Shown here: positions 30 to 52,766 of the stretch, piece after piece
How positions within the stretch are numbered: position 1 is the stretch's first letter
Layout of the letters: each line of letters starts with the position of its first letter
Source of the DNA: Patescibacteria group bacterium
Lineage (GTDB): Bacteria > Patescibacteriota > Patescibacteriia > Magasanikbacterales > UBA922
Length of the DNA stretch: 64,000 nucleotides
Assembly: GCA_041658785.1 (NCBI GenBank)
Contig: JBAZZL010000001.1
Span: 5,478 to 69,477, forward strand
Direction: 5' to 3'
Notes under the pieces: generated by a model
Seen by the model: only the letters and a program-made list of their open reading frames with translations
Database searches by the model: none
What the model was told of the DNA's origin: nothing
Program-made: the position numbers and the translations under genes

Positions 30-110
30 GAATTACGAAACAGGCGTAAACTGTCATTCCCGTCCGCCAGCTGGCGGACGGGAATGACAAATGATGACGT
101 TTCGTAATTC
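30..110. repeat. Nested palindromic MITE-like element, family 1 (gaattacgaaac...gtcattcccg..cgggaatgac...gtttcgtaattc)
   Basis: Outer inverted repeat gaattacgaaac/gtttcgtaattc encloses inner inverted repeat gtcattcccgtccgccagctggcggacgggaatgac. Related copies at 1808-1935, 8767-8893, 51724-51829. Confidence 0.7.
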
Positions 111-376
111 AAAGGAAGTAGAAAAAAACGCCTTTTGCTTAATGGCATCCCTCCGCTATTTTTTATTCGCCTACGCCTGAATACCGCGGGGCTTGCCCCG
201 CGGATAAAAGGCGGAGCGAATCCGCCGATGAGGCAGATAAACCACGGGTGCTTCGGCGAATGAACTCTTATTTGCCTGATACCCCGAGGCTTGCCTCGGG
301 GAGGGGTTCATTGTTTATATTATAACATAATGTATTTAATAGCGCCAAATGGCCGAACTAGCATGATTTCAGACAG

Positions 377-1807: not shown

Positions 1808-1935
1808 TGTCATTCCCGCCCCCGTTTCCACGAGGGTAAACTCCGGCGGGAATCCAGTCGCCTCGTATTATAGCTTAGCCATGTTTCTGGATTCTGCCGG
1901 AGTTTATCCTCGCGCAGGCGGGGGCGGGAATGACA
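1808..1935. repeat. MITE-like family 1 copy (gtcattcccgcccccg ... cgggggcgggaatgac)
   Basis: Inverted termini gtcattcccgcc/ggcgggaatgac; internal ggtaaactccggcgggaatccagtcgc block shared with the copy at 51724-51829. Confidence 0.7.
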
Positions 1936-3060: not shown

Positions 3061-3627
3061 TTACTCGCTCGCTCTCCCGGCATATTCTCCAGTCTCGGTA
3101 TTAACCAGCACCTCTTCGCCTTCTTTTATAAATATCGGAGCTCTTATTTTTAATCCATTGTCCAGCGCTATTTCTTTGGTAACATTGCCGCTCGCCGTGT
3201 CCCCTTTTACCGCCGGAGGCGCTTCTGCCACACTATACTTTATTTTTTTTGGCAATTCTATCGCCACCGGATTGCCATCATGCAACGCCATTACCACTAC
3301 CAGTCCGTCTTTCAAATATTTCGCGTCCTCGCCGATTATATTCAAATTAACATCCAAAGTTTCATAATTTTCTTGATCCATAAATGAATAAACCGCGCCG
3401 TTGTTATAAAGATATTGCATGCTTTTTCTGTTTATATAAACGGTGTCAACCGCTTCTCCGCTTTTGTAGGTAATTTCAATCGTCTTCCCCGAAGCAATTC
3501 CCTTCATTTTTGTTTTGGTAAAAGCCGCGCCCTTTCCCGGATTTACAAATTGAAAACCAACCACAGCATAAAGCTCGCCATGGCGGCGGATGACCGATCC
3601 CTTTTTAATGTCGTTGGTGTCTCCCAT
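3061..3627 (-). CDS. efp: Elongation factor P
   Basis: 188 aa. Conserved loop VNPGKGAAF carries the modifiable Lys (equivalent to E. coli K34). Three-domain EF-P layout. Confidence 0.93.
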   Translation of the reverse strand: MGDTNDIKKGSVIRRHGELYAVVGFQFVNPGKGAAFTKTKMKGIASGKTIEITYKSGEAVDTVYINRKSMQYLYNNGAVYSFMDQENYETLDVNLNIIGEDAKYLKDGLVVVMALHDGNPVAIELPKKIKYSVAEAPPAVKGDTASGNVTKEIALDNGLKIRAPIFIKEGEEVLVNTETGEYAGRASE

Positions 3628-3628
3628 A

Positions 3629-3760
3629 AAGCATTAAAGCACTAAAGCACTAAAGCACTAAAGCACTAAAGCACTAAAGCACTAAAGCACTAAAGCACTA
3701 AAGCACTAAAGCACTAAAGCACTAAAGCACTAAAGCACTAAAGCACTAAAGCACTAAAGC
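3629..3760. repeat. 9-bp microsatellite (gcactaaag) x about 14.5 in the efp upstream region
   Basis: Perfect tandem copies read directly. A second AT-rich repeat (ttttaatgttttaaag x3) lies at 3853-3897, overlapping the epmA 3' end. Confidence 0.9.
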
Positions 3761-3871
3761 AAAAAAAACATTCATTTTTGATTTTAATATTTGTTTGTAA
3801 TTATCTGTCACACGCCTTATTTTATTTTGCTTTTTTATTTTCTTGCTTTTATGTTTTAATGTTTTAAAGTT

Positions 3872-8766: not shown

Positions 8767-8893
8767 GTGAATTACGAAACTATCTCTTTTTGTCATTCCC
8801 GCGGAGGCGGGAATCCAGTCGTAAGGTGAATCTGGCTCGATTTCTGGATTCCCGCCTCCGCGGGAATGACAGACAATGCATTTCGTAATTCAC
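8767..8893. repeat. MITE-like family 1 copy with outer gtgaattacgaaac/gtttcgtaattcac inverted repeat
   Basis: tgtcattcccgcggaggcgggaatccagtcg ... gattcccgcctccgcgggaatgaca, nested inside the outer inverted repeat. Flanked by AT-rich aattaaacaaaat-type degenerate repeats (8105-8195, 8690-8765). Confidence 0.75.
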
Positions 8894-16209: not shown

Positions 16210-16785
16210 ATGATTTCCTCAATCCGCGGCACAACCGTCGCCAAAACCGCCACCAGCGTTCATATTCAAACCTCCGGCGGTGTTGGCTATGAAATTTCTT
16301 TAACTCCGCTCCACGCGGCGAAGCTGGTTTTGAATAAGGAAGCGGAATTGCCGACTTATTTGCGGGTGACGGAAAGCGCGCTGGATTTGTTCGGTTTTCA
16401 GAATGATGAAGAGAGAGGTTTTTTTATTTTATTGATTTCCGTTTCCGGCGTCGGCCCGAAGACCGCGTTGAACATTTTGTCTTTGGGATCGTTATCGGAA
16501 ATAAAATCCGCCATCGCCCGCGGGGACGCGAAGTATCTTTCGGCGGTCAAGGGAATCGGGAGGAAGACGGCGGAGAGGTTGTGCGTGGAGCTTAAGTCAA
16601 AAATCACGAGGCACGAGGCATACAGCACGACGCAAACGAACGGCGGAGTGCTATCTGAAGTAATAGACGGACTGGTTGCCTTGGGATATTCTCGGGAAGA
16701 GGCGCGGGAGGCGGTCGCGGGGGTGGAGAGCGAAGGGAAGACGACGGAGGGGATTTTGAGAGAAGTTTTGAAGAATAAAAAATGA
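16210..16785 (+). CDS. ruvA: Holliday junction DNA helicase RuvA
   Basis: OB-fold N-terminus, two HhH motifs (LISVSGVGPKTALNIL; LSAVKGIGRKTAERL), C-terminal RuvB-binding domain. Confidence 0.88.
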   Translation: MISSIRGTTVAKTATSVHIQTSGGVGYEISLTPLHAAKLVLNKEAELPTYLRVTESALDLFGFQNDEERGFFILLISVSGVGPKTALNILSLGSLSEIKSAIARGDAKYLSAVKGIGRKTAERLCVELKSKITRHEAYSTTQTNGGVLSEVIDGLVALGYSREEAREAVAGVESEGKTTEGILREVLKNKK

Positions 16786-24042: not shown

Positions 24043-24119
24043 TGGTCGGGGTGAAAGGACTTGAACCTTCGGCCTTCTGGTCCCAAACCAGACGCTCTAG
24101 CCAACTGAGCTACACCCCG
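24043..24119 (-). tRNA. tRNA-Pro (TGG)
   Basis: Hand-folded reverse complement: CGGGGTG acceptor, anticodon loop TTTGGGA, T-loop GGTTCAAGTCC, 3' ACCA encoded. Confidence 0.85.
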
Positions 24120-24206
24120 AAAACATGATGCACGAGGCACGTAGCACGACTCATTTTGGACAATTTGTCGTGCGTCGTGCTGTGTGCATCGTGCCTCGTG
24201 AATAAG
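24120..24206. repeat. MITE-like family 2 (catgatgcacgaggcacg ... ttggacaatt ... cgtgcctcgtg), between tRNA-Pro and tRNA-Phe
   Basis: Imperfect inverted repeat around the ttggacaatt core. Homologous copies at 50968-51059 and 52640-52790, partial at 51136-51175 and 43640-43680. Confidence 0.65.
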
Positions 24207-30318: not shown

Positions 30319-31383
30319 TTAGTTGTTATCTAGTTCACCGTGATAGTAGCAATTATAGATGGAGATAATAGCCAAAAACAACGAGGCGATAATCGGCCCG
30401 ATCACAAAACCGGAAATACCAAAAAGAAAAATGCCGCCCAAAGTAGTAAAGAGAATAATGAGCGGATGCATTTGAGTATCCTTGCCAATGAGCGGCGGAC
30501 GGATAATATTGTCTATGGTGCTGATGAATAATCCGCCAATGAGGATAACCAGCCCTTGCCAGGTATTTCCAAGAGCAAGCATAATGATGCCGGCGGGAAG
30601 CCAGATAACAAACGAACCAATGGCCGGGACTACGGACAAAGCGATCATAATAATACCCCAAACCAAAGCTCCTTGAATGCCGGCAATCCAAAAAAAGATT
30701 CCGCCCAAAGTGCCTTGCAGACCGCCGACAATGAGCGTGCTTTTCAAAGTAGCTCTAGCCGTAGAAGTGAACTTCTGATAAAGCATTGCTTCATATTTAT
30801 CGCCCAAGGGAGAGACGCGCATGAGAAATTTGAGCAGGCGCGGGCCATCTTTGAAAAAGAAAAACAAAGTGTAGAACATGATAAACAGCATGAAGACAAA
30901 CTTGACTGACACTTGTGTTAAATTTTTAACATTATTAAATAAAAAGATGCTGATTACCTTGGTCGCGTTTGTGGCATAACCTGTCCATTCCGTTTTGATA
31001 TTTTCCACATAAGGAGCAAGGGGGGTGGACTCTAGCCATGCCGTAGCGCCTTGAACATTATTGATAAGACCGTCTCCTCGCGAGACTCGCGTGTACAATT
31101 CAATTGATTCATTGACAATGAGAATAGAAAGCAAGGTAAGGGGAAGGAATATGGTTACGATCACTAAAACCAAAACAAAAACGGAGCTTAAGCGCGGCAG
31201 TTTGATGTGTTTGTCCAGCCAGCTATATATCGGATAAAACAAAATTGCCAATACCGCGGCCCAGAAAATCGGATAAAAAAACGGACGAATGAGATAGAGC
31301 ATGGCAATGGTCAAAATGATGATCAACCCGAAAAAGAAGGCTGAGCGCATTGTGCTAAAATTTACTTTCTCGTTTTTCGGCAT
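30319..31383 (-). CDS. AI-2E family transporter (YhhT/PerM-like)
   Basis: Eight TM helices with the AI-2E conserved C-terminal region. The ORF extends to 31578 across a repeat; MPKNEK at 31383 is the likely start. Confidence 0.75.
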   Translation of the reverse strand: MPKNEKVNFSTMRSAFFFGLIIILTIAMLYLIRPFFYPIFWAAVLAILFYPIYSWLDKHIKLPRLSSVFVLVLVIVTIFLPLTLLSILIVNESIELYTRVSRGDGLINNVQGATAWLESTPLAPYVENIKTEWTGYATNATKVISIFLFNNVKNLTQVSVKFVFMLFIMFYTLFFFFKDGPRLLKFLMRVSPLGDKYEAMLYQKFTSTARATLKSTLIVGGLQGTLGGIFFWIAGIQGALVWGIIMIALSVVPAIGSFVIWLPAGIIMLALGNTWQGLVILIGGLFISTIDNIIRPPLIGKDTQMHPLIILFTTLGGIFLFGISGFVIGPIIASLFLAIISIYNCYYHGELDNN

Positions 31384-31394
31384 ATTTTTATTTT

Positions 31395-31500
31395 TTAATC
31401 CGTCTACGCCTGTGGGCTGCGCCGGACAAGAAGGTGGTTTAATTCCCCGCAGCTTGCTGCGGAACAAGAGTCCAGAGCTTGCTCTGGGGTTCATACCTTT
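31395..31500. repeat. Palindromic repeat family 3 (cttaatccgtctacgcctgtgggctgcgccggacaag ... ccgcagcttgctgcgg ... ccagagcttgctctggggttcatacc)
   Basis: The reverse-complement copy at 51238-51440 is interrupted by a family-1-like insert of about 100 bp. A partial copy lies at 31931-31975. Confidence 0.7.
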
Positions 31501-31657
31501 GATTTTTTTTAAGGCCCTTTGAGGTTTGGGGCGGCAATCGAACGAACTACGCCCCCTTTCCCTTTCAAAGTATAGCACAATTTACAAATCCACAAAATAG
31601 TCCAGCTTTTTGGTTGTCGGTTTTCCGCTCGTTATACCACTCAATTGTTAATCAAAA

Positions 31658-31859: not shown

Positions 31860-32139
31860 AAAAATTTGTTATACTCAATTGCTAATTAAATTCCGTATAA
31901 TACTCCGTTTTCCCGGCCGCCGACTTTGTGTCGGGATGGAACAATAGTCCAGAGCTTGTTGTAAGGTTCATACCTTCATACCATTGATTAATTTTTTATC
32001 TCTCTACAATTCCCCGCCTTTCCAGCTTCCTAACAATTAAACAGTTTACTTGAATTATAATATTTTGTCAACATCCCATCCTAACTCCTTTCCCAACATA
32101 CTCAAGAAACCAAAATATCCGTCGTTTTATTTTAAAAAT

Positions 32140-33258
32140 TTACTGCCTGATTGGCATTATAATATATAAATAATCCTCTTTTCCTTTTTCTTTTATTAAG
32201 CATGGGGCGTCCGCGCTGTTCATCAACAATTCAATATCACCGCTCATCTGCAGCAAGCCGTCAAGAAGATACCGGTGATTGAGTAGAATTGAATTCTCTT
32301 CGCCCGTTACATCAGCATCAATTTCTGAACTATGTTCTCCTTTTTGCGTGCTCATAGAAGAAATACCAACAGTATTATTTGACGCGTTAAAATCAAAAGA
32401 AACAGCATTCACTCCTGCGGTAGTAAACAAACTGGCGGCCTTTATTTTGTTTATCATTACTTCTAAAGGAAAAGTCGCTGTTGTTTTGAAAGCTGCTGGA
32501 ATTATCTGCGTGTAATCTGGGTACTTTCCATCAATCAGCCTGGTGCTAAATTCGTAATTATCATATTGAAAGAGAAGTTGTGTATTGCTGATCAAAACAC
32601 GCGCCTGTATTTCATCATTCTTTTTTTCCAAACCAAGCAACCTCGCCATTTCATACGCTGCGCGAGCAGGCACTATGCAATTACACCCATCTTCTCCTTG
32701 CGCTACAGATACTTTTTTTTCCGCCAGACGATAAGAGTCTGTTGCCGCCAAAACCAACCCGCGGTATCTCTCGGTAAAAAATGAAAAGTTGACGCCTGAC
32801 AACTCAGGTCTTATTTCATTTTTTGCGGCGGCTATCGCTGTTTGAGACAGCGCCTGCCGGAATGGTTCTCCCAACAACAGATAAATGTGCGACGCTTCCA
32901 CCTCTGGCAATATGGGGAATTCATCCGCGGGTGTTCCTTTTATTTTTGTGCTTGAATTCCCGCAAGATACTTTTAATTCGTTTTCTTTTAAACTTATTTC
33001 AACCTGATCTTCTGTGAGCAGGTGAATATAATCACTCAATGTCTTTGCTGGCGCGGTAAATGTCCCTGCCTCTTCTATTTTTGCCCTCAGGTTTGCTTTT
33101 ACTGACATTTCCAAATTTGTTGCTACAAATTCAACTTTCGACTCGCTTACAATAATTAAAATATTTACCAAGATTGGCAGATTGACCTGTCTGCCAGCCA
33201 CAGAACTCACAATATCTAGAGTGTGTGACAAATTTTCTCGCGTGCATGTAAATTTCAT
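32140..33258 (-). CDS. dnaN: DNA polymerase III beta sliding clamp
   Basis: 372 aa with the three-domain beta-clamp pattern, directly downstream of dnaA. Confidence 0.9.
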   Translation of the reverse strand: MKFTCTRENLSHTLDIVSSVAGRQVNLPILVNILIIVSESKVEFVATNLEMSVKANLRAKIEEAGTFTAPAKTLSDYIHLLTEDQVEISLKENELKVSCGNSSTKIKGTPADEFPILPEVEASHIYLLLGEPFRQALSQTAIAAAKNEIRPELSGVNFSFFTERYRGLVLAATDSYRLAEKKVSVAQGEDGCNCIVPARAAYEMARLLGLEKKNDEIQARVLISNTQLLFQYDNYEFSTRLIDGKYPDYTQIIPAAFKTTATFPLEVMINKIKAASLFTTAGVNAVSFDFNASNNTVGISSMSTQKGEHSSEIDADVTGEENSILLNHRYLLDGLLQMSGDIELLMNSADAPCLIKEKGKEDYLYIIMPIRQ

Positions 33259-33589
33259 ATTTTAATTATTTAATTTATTTTCTATTATCACTTTCTTTAT
33301 TTATTATTAATAATATTGTTGTGTATTGTAGAGGAGTGGATAGAGTGGATAAAACATGAAATTGCTTTTTATTGAGTCTAAAATTGAAGGTGGCGGACGT
33401 GGTGTGTTTGTGTTTTTTTGTTGATTAATTGTTTATATTTTTTTGTATTATTTTTTGTTTGTGTATAAGGTGTTTTTGATTTTTATATTTTTCAACAGGC
33501 TGGCGGCAGTTTAATTTTTTTTTCAACAATATTATCCACCGATATATTATTTTTTTAAATCAATTCAATCTGCCTGCGCCGCCTTGAAA
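33259..33589. other. Candidate oriC segment (dnaA-dnaN intergenic, AT-rich, DnaA boxes)
   Basis: Near-consensus DnaA boxes gtggataaa (33345-33353), agtggatag (33335-33343) and ttatccacc (33533-33541), in very AT-rich sequence. Confidence 0.6.
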
Positions 33590-34972
33590 TTATAATGATT
33601 GGGAAAATAATTTTTGTTTTATCAGTTCCAAATCTTGTTTTAACTTTAGATCGTTGTCAATATTGGTGGCAATTTTTGTGTGGGCATGCATTGCCGTGGT
33701 GTGGTCTCTTCCTCCCAGCTCATTTCCGATTGCTGGGTAAGAAAGTTTTAATTCCTCGCGCAGAAGAAACATTATTATCTGGCGGGGGAAAGACACTCTT
33801 TTCTCTCTGCTTTTTCCCAACAGATCCTCAAGAGCAACATCATAAAATTTTGCTATGCCAAAGATAAGCTCTCTTGGCGTTACCGATTTTTTTAGGGTTT
33901 GGCTTTCAAAACTGGCCAAGATTGATTTTACTGTTTCTTCGGTAGGTGTGCTGTTTTTGAGATCATGGTAAGCGGCGATTTTATTCAGCGCTCCTTCTAA
34001 TTCGCGGATATTGCTTTGGATAGAAGACGCGATAAGTTGCAACATTTCTTCCGACAAATCAAATTGTTTTTCTTGGCATTTTTTTTGCAAGATCGCCACT
34101 CTTGTTTCCATATCCGGCGGAGCGATGTCGGCAATCATCCCCCACTCAAAACGGCTGCGGAGCCGATCTTCCATCGCTGGAATGGCTTTTGGCGGCCGGT
34201 CGCTCGTAAGAACAATCTGGTTGCCATTTTGGTGCAGTTCATTGAAGGTGTGGAAGAATTCTTCTTGTGTTTGTTCTTTTCCGCTGATGAACTGGATGTC
34301 GTCGATGAGCAGTAGGTTAACATTCCGATAGCGCTCCTTGAATTCTTTTGCCCTGCCTTCTTTTACAGCGTTTACAAATTCGCCGGTAAATTTTTCAGAG
34401 CTTACATAAAGTACTTTTATTTGCGGATTATTTTCTAGCATTTTGTTGGCAACAGCCTGTATTAAGTGTGTTTTTCCAAGGCCGACGCCGCCATAGATAA
34501 ACAGAGGATTGTACGCATCTCCCGGACGGTCGGCGACCGCGCGCGCAGCCGCGTGCGCGAGCTCGTTTCCTTTGCCCACAACAAAAGAAGTAAAATTATA
34601 TTTTGCGTTTAGACCGAATTGAGAAAGTATCTGTTTTGTTTCACGAGAGTAAATCGGAGTTTGGATGCTGGAAACAGAAGCGTCCTTGGAAAAGGTACAC
34701 TCCAACTCCTGAATATGTTTAATGTTTTCAACCTTATATTCAATTTTTTTAATCCGTTTGTCGGTAATGCGCTCCAGAAGTCTGACAACATCAGGGTGGT
34801 ATTTTTTTTCTAGCCAGCTTTTTGTGAAAGTGTTTGGAACGCAGACAACCACTTCTCCATCTTTTGAAAATTGGCCAATTCCAGTATTTCTAAACCATGT
34901 GGTAAAGTTGGCTTTGGAGATTTTTAGTTCAAACTCAGCAAGAACAGCCTGCCAGATTTCATGATTAGTCAT
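33590..34972 (-). CDS. dnaA: Chromosomal replication initiator DnaA
   Basis: Walker A GGVGLGKTHL, sensor and arginine-finger region, C-terminal DNA-binding helix-turn-helix (ELKLSYPAIGNELGGRDHTT); 460 aa. Confidence 0.95.
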   Translation of the reverse strand: MTNHEIWQAVLAEFELKISKANFTTWFRNTGIGQFSKDGEVVVCVPNTFTKSWLEKKYHPDVVRLLERITDKRIKKIEYKVENIKHIQELECTFSKDASVSSIQTPIYSRETKQILSQFGLNAKYNFTSFVVGKGNELAHAAARAVADRPGDAYNPLFIYGGVGLGKTHLIQAVANKMLENNPQIKVLYVSSEKFTGEFVNAVKEGRAKEFKERYRNVNLLLIDDIQFISGKEQTQEEFFHTFNELHQNGNQIVLTSDRPPKAIPAMEDRLRSRFEWGMIADIAPPDMETRVAILQKKCQEKQFDLSEEMLQLIASSIQSNIRELEGALNKIAAYHDLKNSTPTEETVKSILASFESQTLKKSVTPRELIFGIAKFYDVALEDLLGKSREKRVSFPRQIIMFLLREELKLSYPAIGNELGGRDHTTAMHAHTKIATNIDNDLKLKQDLELIKQKLFSQSL

Positions 34973-35234
34973 AGAAAAATTATAACACCAAGGCTACGAA
35001 TTTATACTAATGATACCCAATATTGCTCCGTCTTTTTTACTTAGCGCAATCTGATTAAAGAATATTTGCGGCACTGGCATTTATTTGTAGATTTGTATTA
35101 TTTTGGAGCAACTGTCGTATTTTAACACACTTTCAAAAAACAAAAAATGGCTTAAAATAGCCAAAAAGTGGGTAAAATGGGGATAAGCTGTGGATAGTGG
35201 GGATAACAGCTTGCGCCACACTGTATCAGCTTAA
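34973..35234. promoter_or_regulatory. dnaA upstream region with clustered DnaA boxes (second candidate oriC half)
   Basis: tggggataag, tgtggatag and tggggataac within 35179-35210, preceded by an AT-rich stretch of about 180 bp. Confidence 0.55.
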
Positions 35235-43735: not shown

Positions 43736-44575
43736 ATGAGCTGTAGAAGAATATCGGACAGATGTGATAAAATAGATATGATTCTTTTTATGTTCAACGA
43801 ATTGTTTCGCAATAAATACCGTATCGCATCAGCCCGCCATCCGAATTGGAATTACACGTCCGTTGGGCGTTATTTTGTGACGATTTGCACGGGCGGACGG
43901 ATTTGCCATTTTGGCAAAATTGAAAATGGTGGTATGATATTATCCCCGACGGGCAGAATTGTTCGGGAGGAATGGTTGAAAACGCCGCGAATTCGCGATA
44001 ATATAAAATTGGACGCGTGGGTGGTGATGCCGAACCATTTGCATGGGATTGTGGTGATAAAAACATTGGGGGAAAATAAAATGGCGGTAATGTCAGGTTC
44101 AACGACAAATGGCGGTGATGAAAACGTGGGTGATGGGAATGATGCGGGCGGTGGGGAAAACGTTGGTGACGGAATAAACGTTGGCGGTGGGAATAACGTT
44201 GGCGGTAGAGACGCCCCGCCGGGGCGTCTCTACGATTGCATTCCACCAAACGATTGCATTCCACCAAACGATTGCATTCCACCAAACGATTGCATTATTA
44301 CCAACGTTGACAATGCATCCGTGAACGCAATCAACCGATCGTCCAATACCGGCGGCCCCAATCCCAATTGGAAACCCAATTCGTTGGGTTCAATTGTCAA
44401 CCAATTTAAATCAATTTGCACCAAACGGATTCGTTCGGCCGGACATTCGGATTTTTCCTGGCAGGCGCGATTCCACGACCATATTATCCGCAACGAAATC
44501 GCGTTGAATAATATCCGCCGATATATTAAACAAAATCCCCAAAAATGGGGTACGGATTGTTTTCATGTTTTATGA
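43736..44575 (+). CDS. IS200/IS605-type Y1 (HuH) transposase, REP-associated (RAYT-like), with a roughly 100-aa low-complexity and palindrome insert
   Basis: HuH motif WVVMPNHLHGIVVI; C-terminal SWQARFHDHIIRNEIALNNIRRYIKQNP block. Insert = G/N/D-rich segment, 29-nt palindrome (44205-44233) and 4x DCIPPN from an 18-bp repeat (44231-44296). Confidence 0.6.
   Translation: MSCRRISDRCDKIDMILFMFNELFRNKYRIASARHPNWNYTSVGRYFVTICTGGRICHFGKIENGGMILSPTGRIVREEWLKTPRIRDNIKLDAWVVMPNHLHGIVVIKTLGENKMAVMSGSTTNGGDENVGDGNDAGGGENVGDGINVGGGNNVGGRDAPPGRLYDCIPPNDCIPPNDCIPPNDCIITNVDNASVNAINRSSNTGGPNPNWKPNSLGSIVNQFKSICTKRIRSAGHSDFSWQARFHDHIIRNEIALNNIRRYIKQNPQKWGTDCFHVL
44205..44233. repeat. Perfect REP-like palindrome GTAGAGACGCCCCGCCGGGGCGTCTCTAC inside the RAYT ORF
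   Basis: 13-bp perfect arms. A second copy with an added 18-bp direct repeat sits at 45215-45261 inside holA. Confidence 0.85.
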
Positions 44576-45708
44576 TTATATTTTTATACGGCCCGGACAC
44601 CTTCCGTAGCCGGCAACAATTGAAAAAAATGATCGCCAAGTTCAAACATGACCGCGACCCGCAAGGGCTGAATGTGGTTCGTTTGGACGCGGAAAAAGAA
44701 GAAGACACCCGCCGGGTTACGAGCGAAATTTTGGCTACGCCGTTTTTGGCCGAGCGGCGGATGGTGGTGATTGAAAATTTGTTAAATTCTAAACAGACGG
44801 ATTTATTGGAAGGGTTATTGAAAAGAATTGAAGAAAAAAAAATGCCGGAATCAAACGTGATTATTTTTTGGGAAGCGCTGGACGATCCGGCGCAAAAGAA
44901 AAAAGGGGATGAAACGGCAACGCCAAAAACCAAGGCGGCGAAAGAACTGTTCGCGCGTTTGCAAAAAGAAAAATACGCCCAGCGGTTTGAATTATTTTCC
45001 GGCGCCAAACTGGCGACCTGGATCGCGGGCGAAGTAAAAGAACGCGGCGGCGTCATTGACCGGCCCGCGGTCGATTATCTGGCCGCGAACGTGGGGGGCG
45101 ACATGTGGCGGTTGAATTCGTTGATTGGACAATTGGTGGCGTATTGTTATTCCGAAGGCGGCGACGGTGCGTTGCGTGGGGACGCCACGGCACATGGGGA
45201 CACCCCGGCGGCGGGTAGAGACGCCCCGGCGGGTAGAGACGCCCCGGCGGGGCGTCTCTACGCCGTTGACAGGGTTGCGGAGGCAATACGGGCAAAGGAC
45301 GTCCAATTGTTTCTAGACGAACGCGCCGACGACAACATTTTCAATCTGGTAGACGCCATTGTCGCGAAAAATCCCAAACAGGTTTTTGTCATGATTCAGG
45401 AACAATATAATAAAGGCGAGGACGCGCAGTATATTTTTGCGATGTTAATAAGGCAGTTTCGTATTTTGTTGGAACTCCGAGACATGTTTGACCGCGAAGA
45501 TAATATCCAGAGCGGCGTTCTGGCGCAAAAGTTGGGGCTCCATCCGTTTGTGGTGAAAAAATCACTGCCTTTGGTCAAGCGATACACCATGGCGGAATTA
45601 AAAAACATTTACGAACGCCTGCTTGAGCTGGATATCCAAACAAAAACCGGCCAGGGCGGCCAGTCGTTGTTGTTGGATATTTTCGTTGGGAGAATCTGCG
45701 CGGAGTAG
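44572..45708 (+). CDS. holA: DNA polymerase III delta subunit
   Basis: About 380 aa, clamp-loader delta-like N-terminal (IIFLYGPDTF) and C-terminal helical domains. ATGA overlap with the RAYT stop. Convergent with rpsT, a common arrangement. Contains an in-frame REP-like insert (AGRDAPAGRDAPAGRLY). Confidence 0.65.
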   Translation: MIIFLYGPDTFRSRQQLKKMIAKFKHDRDPQGLNVVRLDAEKEEDTRRVTSEILATPFLAERRMVVIENLLNSKQTDLLEGLLKRIEEKKMPESNVIIFWEALDDPAQKKKGDETATPKTKAAKELFARLQKEKYAQRFELFSGAKLATWIAGEVKERGGVIDRPAVDYLAANVGGDMWRLNSLIGQLVAYCYSEGGDGALRGDATAHGDTPAAGRDAPAGRDAPAGRLYAVDRVAEAIRAKDVQLFLDERADDNIFNLVDAIVAKNPKQVFVMIQEQYNKGEDAQYIFAMLIRQFRILLELRDMFDREDNIQSGVLAQKLGLHPFVVKKSLPLVKRYTMAELKNIYERLLELDIQTKTGQGGQSLLLDIFVGRICAE

Positions 45709-47065: not shown

Positions 47066-47377
47066 AAATTTGGTTATTGGATTATTAGTTTAAGGGCTTT
47101 GGATCTAATCTACCCCGCTTTAGCGGGGGTTCGTGGAGCTTTAGCTCCTGCGAACGTAACCAGAAACTGGTAATTAGTAATTGGTAATTGGTTTTAAAAA
47201 TAATCGTTAATTACCAATTATCCTGCCGCTCCGCATTGTGCGGGGTGGGACGACTTACTGTTTACTATCATCAATTTGCCTTACTCTGCTTTATTTGTTA
47301 TCGTGCGGCGAGTATAACGGCAATCACCAATTTATGTCAACAGTTTTTGGAGGCCGACCCATAAACCAATAAACCTT

Positions 47378-50114: not shown

Positions 50115-50933
50115 ATGGACAAGAATTTAGAACAACTCGGTTTGGACAAAACAGAGTCAAAAATATATTTGGCTTTGCTTGAACTTGGCCCCTCAACCGT
50201 TAGTGAGATAACTAAAAAAGCCAGTGTGACGCGCACGCTTGGCTACCATGTGCTCCAAAAACTCGGCTGGTACGGGTTGGTGGATCGGGTTTCTGGACGC
50301 GGGAGCAAAATTATTTTTTCCGCGACGCATCCGCGCCAATTGGTTCAACACTTACAAAATAAAAAAAATACCTGGGAAAAAAAGTTGAAAGAGGCAGAGA
50401 AGCTCTTGCCAGAATTGATTTCTTTGTATAAAATTGCGGAGAAGCCGACGATTCGCTTCCAGGAAGGTTTGGTCGGGATTAAAAACACTTATAGCGAAAC
50501 CTTGGAATCAAAAACAGAGATTTTTTCTATTCTTGATATTGAGGGCTGGGATATTCCGGAGTTGCGCCAGTTTGGCAAGGATTACAACCGTGAACGAAGC
50601 AGACGAAGAATTAAAGAACGTTTTTTGATATTAGACACGCCCCAAGCCCGGGAATGGATGAAATTTTACAAGGGATCGTTAAAATACACGGATTATCGTT
50701 GGATTAGGTCGGATCAGCTACCCGGAATAGCGGAGTTCGGCGGGGAAATTAATATCTATGAGGATAAAGTGGCGATGATGCTCTTGAAAAAGCCCAACAG
50801 AATGGGTATAATGGCGCAGAGTTCGGCTTTGGCGAATATTTTGAAGGGGCTCTTTGAGCTCGCCTGGCAAGCAGGAACACCGGCGCGGAGAAAAAGACCC
50901 CGTAGTTCAACGGATAGAACAAGACACTCCTAA
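50115..50933 (+). CDS. TrmB-family transcriptional regulator (wHTH)
   Basis: N-terminal TrmB HTH (ESKIYLALLELGPSTVSEITKKASVTRTLGYHVLQKLGWYGLVDRV) plus a C-terminal domain. The ORF 3' end overlaps the tRNA-Arg gene by 38 nt, so the true stop is uncertain. Confidence 0.6.
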   Translation: MDKNLEQLGLDKTESKIYLALLELGPSTVSEITKKASVTRTLGYHVLQKLGWYGLVDRVSGRGSKIIFSATHPRQLVQHLQNKKNTWEKKLKEAEKLLPELISLYKIAEKPTIRFQEGLVGIKNTYSETLESKTEIFSILDIEGWDIPELRQFGKDYNRERSRRRIKERFLILDTPQAREWMKFYKGSLKYTDYRWIRSDQLPGIAEFGGEINIYEDKVAMMLLKKPNRMGIMAQSSALANILKGLFELAWQAGTPARRKRPRSSTDRTRHS

Positions 50934-50967
50934 CGTCTAGATACAGGTTCAATTCCTGTCGGGGTCA
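50896..50967 (+). tRNA. tRNA-Arg (CCT)
   Basis: Hand-folded: perfect 7-bp acceptor GACCCCG/CGGGGTC, D-stem GTTC/GAAC, anticodon loop CTCCTAA, T-arm ACAGG-TTCAATT-CCTGT, discriminator A. Confidence 0.75.
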
Positions 50968-51059
50968 CCGAGTTCATGATGCATGATGCACACAACACGA
51001 CCCAATTTGGACAATTCGTGATGAATCATGCTGTGTGCATCATGTATCGTGATAAAAAC
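50968..51059. repeat. MITE-like family 2 copy between tRNA-Arg and tRNA-Ala
   Basis: catgatgcatgatgcacacaacacgacccaatttggacaattcgtgatgaatcatgctgtgtgcatcatgtatcgtg aligns to 24123-24205. Confidence 0.65.
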
Positions 51060-51132
51060 GGGCTCGTAGCTCAGCTGGTAGAGCACGGCATTCGCATTGC
51101 CGGGGTCAGGGGTTCGAATCCCCTCGAGTCCA
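51060..51132 (+). tRNA. tRNA-Ala (CGC)
   Basis: GGGCTCGTAGCTCAGCTGGTAGAGCACGGCATTCGCATTGCCGGGGTCAGGGGTTCGAATCCCCTCGAGTCCA; G3:U70 pair present. Confidence 0.85.
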
Positions 51133-51237
51133 CTGTTTCGTGTTCATGATGTATAATACATGTAGCGTAATACATTACAATTGTATACACTAGTGTATAC
51201 AAAAATTGGTCAAAAGCCAATTTTTTATTATTTTGTC

Positions 51238-51440
51238 ACACGTGAAATAATCAATGGTATGAACCCCAGAATAAGCTTTGGGTCCTTGTTCCGCAACAAG
51301 CTGATGAGAATTAAATTGTTTTTTTGTCCGGCCCGTCTTCTCCAGCCCGCCAGCTGGCGGACGGGCGACGCAGGGTAAACTCCGTCAACTGGCGGAGACG
51401 GAACTTGTCCGGCGCAGCCCACAGGCGTAGACGGATTAAG
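51238..51440. repeat. Family 3 repeat copy (reverse complement of 31395-31500) split by a family-1-like insert (about 51300-51410)
   Basis: Termini align to both ends of 31395-31500. The insert carries cccgtcttctccagcccgccagctggcggacggg, related to 45-95. Confidence 0.65.
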
Positions 51441-51723
51441 GATTGATAAAATGTGTACAAATCTGTGGTTATGAGTGGTAGTATGTTAATAACTTTATCT
51501 GACTGGCAATAATAATCCTGCTATTTAAATTAAAAGGTTTTTTGTGGAACAAGAATTTAGAGATAAGTTTAAGATAAATAGGCGATTTAAGTTGAAAGAT
51601 AATAGATTTACGAAGCTATTTTAGATATAATTTATAAATTATTATTTATAATTTAGATATAAAATAATGTCGTACAATATAATATAGTTTATAAAGTTGA
51701 GAGCAGCGTTGAATAATTCAAAT

Positions 51724-51829
51724 GTCATTCCCGCCCCCGCCTGCGCGAGGATAAACTCCGGCGGGAATCCAGTCGCAATGCTGGATAAATTAGCCAATTT
51801 TCTGGATTCCCGCCTCCGCGGGAATGACA
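51724..51829. repeat. MITE-like family 1 copy
   Basis: gtcattcccgcccccgcctgcgcgaggataaactccggcgggaatccagtcgc ... ggattcccgcctccgcgggaatgaca. A related outer-arm remnant tttcgtaattcac lies at 51933-51946. Confidence 0.7.
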
Positions 51830-51993
51830 AATTAAAGCAAAATATCAATTATTCAACGGTCTAAAAGTTAAAAAGAAAGTAAGCAATCTGTCATTATGTG
51901 GTTGTCGCCGAATGACAATAAAGAGGTGGTTTCGTAATTCACAGTAATTACCAAACTTTTTAATAATCTTATTTTGTGGTATAATTTTTTTGT

Positions 51994-52650
51994 ATGAAAA
52001 AAATATTCACAGGATTAATAATCACTGCGCTGGTTTTGTGGACACAGCCAGTAAATACCGCAATGACTGGCGGGAGTTATAATATTCCTGTTGATAGTTT
52101 GATAATGTCAGAGGGTGATTTAATAATAGGCGGCAATTATTCGTTGGAGGGGGCGGTTGAGGGTATAAGCGCAGATGACACCAAGAGCGGAGGCGTCTAT
52201 TCATTGATTGGCGGTTTTGCCGGAGCGACTGGCTCCGGCTCATTAACCGTTTCTTTTAATAAAAGCTCTATCAGTCTGGATTTTGGAAGCAGTCCTGTTT
52301 CGATTGTTGCTAGCGACAGCTTGATACTTACTGTTACAGCCGACTCTATCACTGGATATGGCGCGACGATCTCTGAAAGCGGCAATTTGGCGTCAGGAGC
52401 GAATGATATAAACGACGTTTCCGATGGATCGGTTACGGCTGGTACAGAAGAATACGGAATTAGAACCAGCAGCGGCGATGGGTTGCTTGTAAGCGATACA
52501 GCGATTAATGGCTCGGTAGTAGTCGCATCTTCATATGTTCCAGTCTCAAATAGCCAAACTGCGGTTGTATTTAGCGCCGCCGCCTCGCAAAATACCAAGG
52601 CAGGCGCGTATTCCCACACTGTAACATTTACTATTACGGCCAATCCGTAA
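51994..52650 (+). CDS. Secreted protein, WxL-domain-like (C-terminal AGAYSHTVTFTITANP resembles the second WxL motif with W>F)
   Basis: Signal peptide. G/S/T-rich 218-aa beta-type sequence. C-terminal motif similar to AGxYxGTLTWTLxxxP of Gram-positive WxL surface proteins. Confidence 0.45.
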   Translation: MKKIFTGLIITALVLWTQPVNTAMTGGSYNIPVDSLIMSEGDLIIGGNYSLEGAVEGISADDTKSGGVYSLIGGFAGATGSGSLTVSFNKSSISLDFGSSPVSIVASDSLILTVTADSITGYGATISESGNLASGANDINDVSDGSVTAGTEEYGIRTSSGDGLLVSDTAINGSVVVASSYVPVSNSQTAVVFSAAASQNTKAGAYSHTVTFTITANP

Positions 52651-52766
52651 AAACATGATGCACGATTCACGCAGCATGACCCATGACATGATACATGAGG
52701 CAGATAGCATGAGGCAAGACGCGATGCATAATACGCGCAACAGGACTCAATTCGCCGTAATTCGTT

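Follow-up and report, generated by a model that had tools for sequence, protein, structure and literature searches.

The 860-bp spacer (51133–51993) downstream of a tRNA-Ala(CGC) gene in an uncultured member of the Patescibacteria (candidate phyla radiation, CPR) is probably occupied by clustered DNA repeats that are selfish, rich in G+C, and able to form hairpins, of the kind known as repetitive extragenic palindromes (REPs), neisserial intergenic mosaic elements (NIMEs), and Rickettsia palindromic elements (RPEs). Two repeat families, here called family 1 and family 3, lie in it on a conserved tRNA-trailer backbone. The spacer belongs to a 64,000-nucleotide stretch of DNA (the window), of which it is the longest non-coding gap, with the next gene beginning at 51994; an initial annotation had described it as a non-coding pile-up of repeat families, and this description held. 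Repeat clusters with one element inside another are documented for the pneumococcal BOX, RUP, and SPRITE repeats, and in-frame insertion is documented for RPEs (PMC10969869). The word "probably" applies to our explanation as a whole, which comprises the repeat cluster, its remodelling, and the double-box reading of one family-3 copy set out below.

Family 3 is a modular element with exchangeable hairpin cassettes

The segment at 51 kb had been proposed to be a reverse-complement copy of a repeat at 31 kb, and formal alignment bore this out at a level far above background. The local gapped alignment scored 66.2, compared with a mean of 9.5 (standard deviation 1.6, maximum 16.8) for 500 shuffles. 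Positions 51245–51332 pair with 31421–31508 (88 nt, 80%, reverse complement), and 51404–51453 pair with 31381–31430 (50 nt, 88%), the inner 36 nt being 100% identical. The 31-kb repeat, copy A, is intact; the 51-kb segment is copy B. The family-3 sample comprised about six copies in approximately 130 kb of this genome, and the contigs outside the window that carry the family were assigned to the window's two metagenome-assembled genomes (MAGs) by a shared accession series and the same ENA sample.

Family 3 is built of modules: a 5' box with CCGTC at its start, then a pair of hairpin cassettes that can be exchanged, and finally a 3' box with TTGATT at its end. The framework is nearly invariant among the aligned copies and runs from the 5' box (AATCCGTCTACGCCTGTGGGCTGCGCCGGACAAG) through a linker, hairpin 1 (CAGCTTGCTG or CCCCGACTTTGTGTCGGGA), the sequence AACAAGAGT, and hairpin 2 (AGAGCTTGCTCT or AGTCCCGCATTGCGGGAT) to the 3' box (GGTTCATACCTTTGATT). 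The alternative cassettes all fold stably, with RNA energies of −9 to −17 kcal/mol. The hairpins of copy B are weakened (−2.0 and −4.3 kcal/mol compared with −10.3 and −9.3 in the intact copy), and those of partial copy P are likewise decayed. The 5' box begins (T)CCGTC, a boundary confirmed by a head-to-tail junction in which TTGATT is followed directly by CCGTCTCC; at this junction the unit opens with the CGTC motif. Counted from AATCCGTC to TTGATT, full copies measure 108, 114, 123, 141, and 189 nt, all divisible by three, two intergenic copies included, and three of the six frames of the intact element are stop-free.

Two groups of hairpins elsewhere in the window had been likened to family 3 in the initial annotation. 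Those near 170–330 are probably related, since a long variant at 165–313 (variant C) shares both the 5' end CGYCTACGCCTG and the 3' end GGGGTTCAT, a two-ended pattern found twice in the window with zero occurrences expected by chance. The likeness of those at 47110–47150 was no better than that of shuffled sequence, and they were set aside.

When the two-ended pattern was searched against one genome each of 185,579 species, it returned 39 hits, approximately the number expected by chance, and none of these resembled family 3 by BLAST. In JGI metagenomes the pattern occurred at three loci, all of this population, and no match was obtained with the box pattern in IMG/VR or in a family-3 search of phage records. 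The family-3 translation had no real homologue when a concatenated three-frame peptide was compared with 5.8 billion proteins or when one frame was compared with 1.84 billion cluster representatives. Because matches were confined to this population across species genomes, metagenomes, viral sets, and proteins, family 3 appears to be lineage-specific and to represent a new family of the RPE/BOX kind.

Two other candidate explanations for the differences between copies were tried and rejected: the substitutions that separate copy A from copy B are not confined to adenines, as those of a diversity-generating retroelement would be, and only 6 of 14 agree with GC-to-AT decay of copy B. Both copy A and copy P are located just downstream of dnaN. 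The Pfam domain of the AI-2E transporter next to copy A begins directly after the ATG at 31381–31383, and a mechanical open reading frame (ORF; 30319–31578, minus strand) runs 65 codons farther upstream, through the open frame of copy A.

Family-3 copies sit in frame in dnaX and a glycosyltransferase gene and differ between strains

The spacer is an ordinary kind of repeat pile-up and not a new kind of system; most of the interest lies in two family-3 copies that sit inside protein-coding genes outside the window. Copy D is in frame inside dnaX, where it lies in the variable linker that joins domain III to the C-terminal domain, and adds approximately 38 residues to DnaX (peptide across the insertion: ...KIKGMNPIPQCGTGLLFR...). 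It is absent from six of seven aligned homologues, and the seventh has an unrelated long linker. Copy E lies inside a family-2 glycosyltransferase (GT2) gene in the orientation opposite to that of copy D, such that the element is sense in the GT2 gene and antisense in dnaX. The Pfam match of the GT2 protein is split by it, residues 5–46 and 103–176 corresponding to profile positions 3–44 and 58–131, which leaves approximately 43 extra residues. The pattern by which RPE-type elements are recognised, an in-frame palindromic repeat in a conserved gene that is lacking in homologues, was found for both the dnaX and the GT2 copies.

Remodelling of family 3 was observed. Two co-occurring strains differ by 5 single-nucleotide polymorphisms (SNPs) over 3,757 bp, yet they carry a different hairpin-1 cassette at the same dnaX position (+9 nt; SKL replaced by PDTKSG), and the alternative cassette is also present in partial copy P (31909–31989). 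Copy E has a tandem pair of 5' boxes (+33 nt). Depending on the assembly, its GT2 gene contains one or two 105-nt bodies; the two, found in the other MAG, are arranged head to tail and joined at the TTGATT/CCGTCTCC junction described above. The changes in module size (+6, +9, +33, +48, and +105 nt) are all multiples of three, in intergenic copies as well. Duplication of the 5' box, exchange of cassettes between copies, and head-to-tail amplification have thus taken place on a strain-level timescale, and stop-free copies of family 3 persist in frame in dnaX and the glycosyltransferase gene.

In dnaX on JGI contig Ga0265292_1002333 (locus L048), four of the five strain SNPs fall at 1113–1122, spaced three bases apart over four successive codons, and none of them changes an amino acid; the cluster looks like a very short conversion tract.

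A stronger reading can be built on the size steps that occur only in threes and on the cassette swap in dnaX set against 5 SNPs in 3.7 kb. Family 3 would then be an actively mobile, coding-compatible hairpin-cassette element of CPR bacteria and a dedicated generator of linker and loop variation, with housekeeping and cell-surface-synthesis proteins as its targets; the driver might be a hairpin-specific enzyme and not passive recombination. We consider this quite unlikely.

Copy B is probably an old double-box copy and not a simple nested insertion

The initial annotation had copy B split by an insert of about 100 bp bearing family-1-like palindromes. An extra segment is indeed present, but its length is 81 nt (189 nt for copy B compared with 108 nt), and it is bounded by the sequence TTGTCCGGC at 51324–51332 and 51405–51413. 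Its family-1 character was confirmed: CCGCCAGCTGGCGG at 51347–51360 is identical to 64–77 in the short family-1 copy, and AGGGTAAACTCCG at 51372–51384 is 92% identical to 51748–51760 in the family-1 copy of the spacer. On the element strand, the segment begins with TTCCGTCTCCGCC and ends with GCCGGACAA, which are the start and end of the 5' box. Copy B therefore has a second 5' box (TCCGTCTCCGCC...GCCGGACAA), the centre of which is replaced by a family-1-type expanded hairpin. Where the first box meets the extra segment, the 29 nt across the junction (GGCTGCGCCGGACAAGTTCCGTCTCCGCC) are the same, base for base, as those that join boxes 1 and 2 of copy E, which has no foreign insert; compared with copy E, the second box of copy B is longer at its centre by approximately 48 bases, which form a hairpin of family-1-type pieces. 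As part of the overall explanation, we regard copy B as probably an old, decaying double-box copy, the second box of which acquired an enlarged family-1-type hairpin. Because the junction equals that of the tandem boxes in copy E, the 9-nt repeat TTGTCCGGC is better read as the end of a duplicated box.

The same observations can be read as nested transposition, in which a miniature transposon of approximately 72 nt, related to family 1, inserted into a family-3 copy and produced a 9-bp target duplication, TTGTCCGGC. The segment borders carry a perfect direct repeat of 9 nt at a distance of exactly 81 nt, as a target duplication would leave it, and this counts against the double-box interpretation. 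The segment is also an imperfect palindrome with ends CCGTCTTCTCC...GGAGACGG that folds well (z = −2.6), it shares 19 nt with the short family-1 copy, and nested elements are known from pneumococcal repeat clusters (PMC10969869). However, the plain tandem 5'-box duplication in the GT2 gene has the same 29-nt junction, the segment is without the family-1 ends TGTCATTCCCG, it was found only once in approximately 130 kb of this genome, and a target duplication was seen at no other family-1 or family-3 copy. The flanks of the segment are also unequally conserved: all 36 positions of the first box agree with other copies (36/36), but on the far side of the segment the body has 80% identity and its hairpins are weakened. 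Nested transposition is therefore unlikely as the origin of the segment.

Of the further claim that a nested insertion orders the events, with family 3 first and family 1 later, the interruption of copy B by family-1-type sequence stands but the order does not, because the junction is the tandem-box junction of copy E. A simple order of events is doubtful also because one old insertion in one old element would not give flanks of 36/36 and 80% identity; either the first box of copy B is under constraint or the two parts of copy B differ in age.

Family 1 appears to be an inverted dimer of CGTC-1 REP units

A full family-1 copy had been reported downstream of copy B, and it is present at 51723–51829 with 12-nt perfect terminal inverted repeats. 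The canonical unit of the family reads TGTC-ATTCCCGC-GGAG-GCGGGAAT-CCA. The published definition of CGTC-1 REPs comprises a terminal CGTC, often TGTC (CCTC is also accepted), an 8-bp stem starting with complementary A and T, a 4-nt loop, a CCA tail, and occurrence mostly as dimers; the class was equated with the dRS3 units of Neisseria and RPE-6 of Rickettsia, and no dedicated transposase was reported for it (PMC3733652). Each of these features was found in family 1. All eight unit ends in the window carry the tag TGTCATTCCCG; ATTCCCGC-GGAG-GCGGGAAT, an AT-first 8-bp stem with a 4-nt loop, is present at 8795–8814, 8848–8867, and 51806–51825; every dimer unit has the tail GCGGGAAT-CCAG; and the dimers at 1808–1935, 8791–8871, and 51723–51829 are inverted around spacers of 25–38 nt, within the 20–100 bp of the class. 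Because tag, stem, loop, tail, and dimer layout all fit, family 1 belongs, as an inverted dimer of units, to the CGTC-1 (dRS3-type) REPs, which are widespread in bacteria, and it would be a new host record for a well-described class of REP.

Half of the family-1 units in the window have a replaced loop, which is either a 24-nt insert (CCCGYYTSCRCGAGGRTAAACTCC) or, at 52–89, the 16-nt palindrome TCCGCCAGCTGGCGGA. Units 1812–1853, 1890–1931, and 51727–51768 share the canonical stem with a 24-nt loop; in the spacer dimer, the left unit has such an expanded 24-nt loop, next to a canonical right unit. The core of this dimer lies between the arms of an outer inverted repeat, CGTTGAATAATTC (51707–51723 and 51842–51858), and an inverted pair of GAATTACGAAAC frames the family-1 copies at 30–41/99–110 and 8769–8780/8880–8891.

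Similar elements occur in other hosts. In a BLAST search of 8785–8880 against plasmid records, the same dimer was found in Legionella adelaidensis (93% of the query aligned at 78.7% identity) and in Azospirillum, Cupriavidus, Sphingopyxis, Photobacterium, and Neisseria, with conserved ends and a variable spacer, and the exact 24-base unit pattern is present in more than 120 IMG/VR contigs. The columns of family 1 align with those of the Neisseria, Legionella, and Azospirillum elements; the inverted dimers are arranged around a 25–30-nt spacer, and the published class is likewise without an associated transposase. The differences from CGTC-1/dRS3 are the host, which is a member of the Patescibacteria (CPR) and not a proteobacterium (the published survey lists five phyla), the 16–24-nt loop insert in half of the units, and the extra outer inverted repeat GAATTACGAAAC that frames several copies. 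The dRS3 consensus, ATTCCC-N8-GGGAAT, with which the canonical family-1 units agree exactly, belongs to NIMEs, in which dRS3 units flank 50–150-bp RS elements, typically in long arrays (PMC1797815). Single dRS3-spacer-dRS3 units with spacers of 25–38 nt are present here but, unlike in NIMEs, no arrays were found in approximately 84 kb of the contig.

Among annotated records, family 1 has its closest homologue on L. adelaidensis plasmid NZ_LR134420.1 (79406–79797), where the element starts 28 nt beyond the stop codon of a transposase gene of the IS110 family. Elements of the IS110 family have been reported to target REPs (PMC1525189), and the adjacency is consistent with such targeting; we regard it as a lead.

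Structured RNA and tRNA-directed integration explain the repeats less well

The initial annotation raised the possibility of a shared structured-RNA module, by which family 3 and the linked hairpins would be a structured non-coding RNA or a cis-regulatory leader at several loci. CUUG is a known stable RNA tetraloop, and four hairpins with CUUG loops, all on the same element strand, are the only hint in favour of such a module in our fuller assessment; variant C also folds with z = −5.7, and copy A lies directly upstream of a start codon. However, orientation relative to genes varies, with the element antisense in dnaX, sense in GT2, pointing away from the transporter gene (copy A), and pointing toward ruvB (variant C), and the in-frame copies in two protein genes in opposite orientations argue against an RNA gene. 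The reverse strand of variant C folds equally well (z = −5.0), the loops differ between the alternative cassettes, and the stems of copy B are decayed. No Rfam family matched three family-3 regions even at E < 5; in the window as a whole, only tRNAs passed the gathering thresholds, and of the hits below threshold near a repeat the best was HgcC, with 24.8 bits against a threshold of 50. With the hairpins at 47110–47150 also unrelated, the module was not upheld, and we judge an RNA role of this kind very improbable. As part of the overall explanation, family 3 more probably acts at the DNA level, without a fixed orientation to transcription.

tRNA genes are common integration sites, and the repeats might alternatively be scars or attachment sites of integrative elements that use the tRNA-Ala gene. 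The length of the spacer, the greatest of any intergenic gap in the window, would fit this, and the same genome contains an element with a recombinase fragment that is integrated at tRNA-Gln and flanked by a repeat of the tRNA 3' end. However, within 51133–51993 the 3' end of tRNA-Ala is not repeated and neither an integrase gene nor a fragment of one is present, and both families are also present at several sites without a tRNA (52–89, 1808–1935, 8791–8871, 31397–31504, and inside dnaX and GT2). We regard this possibility as extremely remote.

The integrated element (locus L049, 4193–8615) lies by tRNA-Gln(CTG) and has the direct repeat GCCAAATTGTATGTT and inverted repeats of approximately 130 nt that contain CCGCCAGTTGGCGG. 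Its genes comprise a recombinase zinc-ribbon fragment, a helix-turn-helix gene, an endonuclease VII-like gene, and a methyltransferase.

Possible routes of spread

The changes within family 3 would result from recombination or gene conversion between copies together with slippage at hairpins. New copies could arise by a hairpin- or recombination-based route that involves neither long terminal inverted repeats nor target duplications, and this fits the published CGTC-type REPs because these do not have a dedicated transposase. No transposase gene is present in the window. The ends of family 3 (AATCCGTC... and ...TTTGATT) share only AATC/GATT and not the 15–30-bp terminal inverted repeats of transposable elements of the miniature inverted-repeat type (MITEs), and the flanks of copies A, B, D, and E have no common or duplicated sequence, a weak test with five sites.

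Beyond the 9-nt direct repeat in copy B, several observations weigh against our explanation. No transposition event was observed. No mobilising enzyme could be linked to either family: the sole insertion sequences (ISs) seen, one of rve type (locus L003) and one of IS110 type (locus L061), share no ends with the repeats. The 5' box of family 3 does not follow the rules for CGTC REPs, with only interrupted 4+3-bp pairing and no CCA tail, and the termini, target preference, and module model of the family rest on few sequences. No empty site was found: the TrmB-like regulators of the relatives are 68–74% identical, a distance too great for an empty-site comparison, and there are no shared downstream genes, and the assemblies of the population are identical. 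The insertion hotspot that the initial annotation placed beside the tRNA is a conjecture. The repeats may also have a host function, in termination, mRNA stability, or as a recombination hotspot.

The IS110-family (DEDD) IS at L061 (3700–5010) belongs to the same genome, is flanked by GGGGATATAGTTAGTT, and lies 360 bp downstream of the GT2 gene with the family-3 array. A non-coding stretch of approximately 300 nt upstream of its transposase could encode a bridge or seek RNA.

Comparison with known repeat systems

Family 3 resembles RPEs in being a hairpin-rich repeat of 100–190 nt that occurs both between genes and in frame within unrelated housekeeping genes, at tolerated linker and loop sites and with stop-free frames. 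It differs from them in its modularity (exchangeable cassettes and box duplication) and in an apparently low copy number, approximately six in 130 kb, and the likeness described here is one of features. With pneumococcal BOX it shares a conserved 5' box, a variable middle, a conserved 3' box, and a module number that varies between copies, and in BOX/RUP/SPRITE clusters, as here, different families share spacers and at times lie one inside another (PMC10969869). In contrast to BOX, the middle consists of alternative hairpins and not repeated boxB units, in-frame intragenic copies are prominent, and the sequence and host are unrelated. Like classical MITEs, the elements are small, of non-coding size, multi-copy, structured, and mainly intergenic, whereas family 3 has a 4-nt terminal inverted repeat (AATC...GATT), no consistent target-site duplication, and no parent IS that could be found. 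GTAG REPs and their hairpin-forming dimers (REPINs), which are mobilised by a REP-associated tyrosine (Y1) transposase (RAYT), likewise consist of palindromic G+C-rich units and dimers and probably involve single-strand hairpin biology, but the elements of the spacer do not have the terminal GTAG tag and no RAYT gene was found in the approximately 130 kb examined. A separate perfect palindrome that starts with GTAG (GTAGAGACGCCCCGSCGGGGCGTCTCTAC) is present at 44204–44234 and 45214–45262 and resembles a GTAG-tagged REP.

A REP class that is widespread and an RPE-like element that is lineage-specific thus occur together in a streamlined Patescibacteria genome. Protein-coding palindromic repeats are extended beyond Rickettsia and a few other groups, and the population provides a tractable case for following how such an element changes. 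In practical terms, the repeats fill the longest intergenic gaps and create spurious ORFs and N-terminal extensions, such as the ORF that runs through copy A, and assembly breaks may be due in part to them (a Logan contig begins 8 bp beyond the family-1 copy).

The spacer backbone and its genomic context

Protein homologues of the host carry the labels Magasanikbacteria or Patescibacteria, and judged by these sequences the genome appears to be Magasanikbacteria-like. The window sequence is also present in ENA assembly ERZ27247322 (a 125.8-kb contig), JGI metagenome 3300028032, Logan SRR8449812, and two NCBI MAGs, and all assemblies of the population are identical across 51133–51993. Coordinates of the features are collected in the table.

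Table. Repeats, genes, and motifs in the window; coordinates in other loci carry the locus name
Feature	Position	Strand	Remarks
Family-1 short copy, single 38-nt palindrome TGTCATTCCCG-TCCGCCAGCTGGCGGA-CGGGAATGACA	52–89	.	
Family-3-like long variant C	165–313	+	same 5' and 3' ends, other interior, three strong hairpins
Family-1 dimer	1808–1935	.	24-nt expanded loop in both units
Octamer array	3595–3790		
Family-1 dimer	8791–8871	.	two canonical units, each exact ATTCCC-N8-GGGAAT
"Family 2" sites	16601–16635, 24117–24201, 50968–51052, 52650–52750		
AI-2E transporter gene	30319–31383	−	
Family-3 copy A	31397–31504	+	intact, 108 nt; 13 nt upstream of AI-2E transporter ATG
Family-3 partial copy P	31909–31989	+	no 5' box; alternative hairpin cassette CCGACTTTGTGTCGGG; second hairpin decayed
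18-nt tandem repeat	44232–44303		
TrmB-like regulator gene	50115–50870		5' of tRNA-Arg(CCT)
tRNA-Arg(CCT)	50896–50969		5' of tRNA-Ala(CGC)
tRNA-Ala(CGC)	51060–51133	+	
tRNA-trailer motif ("family 2" of the initial annotation)	51139–51160	+	resembles start of palindromic tRNA spacer 50968–51052
Backbone motifs	51181–51248	.	recur after tRNA-Ala in relatives' loci L050, L052, L054
Perfect 22-bp palindrome TTGTATACACTAGTGTATACAA	51181–51202		
AT-rich hairpin AAAAATTGG-N7-CCAATTTTT	about 51201–51226		
Motif TCACACGTGAAAT	within 51181–51248		
Recurrent palindrome, hairpin, and motif set	51181–51248; L052 6140–6400; L054 6230–6370; L050 9540–9580		
Family-3 copy B	51249–51437	−	189 nt
Copy B, body and 3' box	51249–51323	−	decayed
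Copy B, 81-nt extra segment	51324–51404	−	
Copy B, first 5' box AATCCGTCTACGCCTGTGGGCTGCGCCGGACAAG	51404–51437	−	100% identical to box of copy A and dnaX copies
AT-rich spacer	51438–51706	.	14–29% G+C; AT palindrome 51609–51674
Family-1 element, inverted REP dimer	51707–51858 (core 51723–51829)	.	
GAATTACGAAAC motif	51929–51940	−	right half intact; 2-mismatch partner 51605–51616

The remnant at the start of the spacer that had been assigned to a further repeat, "family 2", is weak and yet above chance: 51139–51160 is identical to 50969–50990, the start of the spacer 3' of tRNA-Arg, at 18 of 22 positions (score 14, shuffle maximum 12.8). The AT-rich spacer at 51438–51706 had no match to any other repeat family.

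The order TrmB, tRNA-Arg, tRNA-Ala is kept in three other Patescibacteria loci, where the gap after tRNA-Ala is 217–450 bp (a range that excludes the locus of the closest TrmB homologue, P0002) and contains neither family. These relatives share with 51181–51248 the TGTATACA palindrome, the AT-rich hairpin, and the TTTCACGTG motif, which look like an ancestral backbone on the basis of this conservation.

The TTGTATACA-N-TGTATACAA palindrome, a ttagccaaaa-type hairpin, and TTTCACGTG recur 3' of tRNA-Ala(CGC) in distant Patescibacteria, usually by TrmB paralogues, and may be an operator or other conserved signal. At L052 (5870–6075) and L050 (9365–9490), tRNA-half-like sequences (…gcattcgca / cctgcccgcc … ggcgggcagg / ttgcggaggtaagg…) flank or follow tRNA-Ala(CGC); they could be a second tRNA-like gene with a large anticodon-loop insert, or a pseudogene.

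A replication origin at the tRNA-Ala spacer was also considered. Relatives carry DnaA boxes after tRNA-Ala, whereas the spacer of the window has none, and the idea was rejected because dnaA, dnaN, and clusters of DnaA boxes are located at 32–35 kb instead. There, dnaN (32140–33258, minus strand) and dnaA (33590–34972, minus strand) are flanked by DnaA-box clusters at 33344–33540 and 35178–35206, and the region 32140–35206 is probably the chromosomal origin.

Many spacers of this genome are filled by short repeats with a period of approximately 8 nt. The palindromic "family 2" element, likewise with a periodicity of approximately 8 nt (CATGATGCACGAGGCACG…), fills spacers between tRNA genes and is also present as three tandem 33-nt units directly after the stop codon of gene 51994–52650. 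Between the ENA assembly and the window, the 18-nt tandem repeat (ACGATTGCATTCCACCAA) varies by a single unit, and the array of the TAAAGCAC octamer (17 copies) also differs between assemblies.

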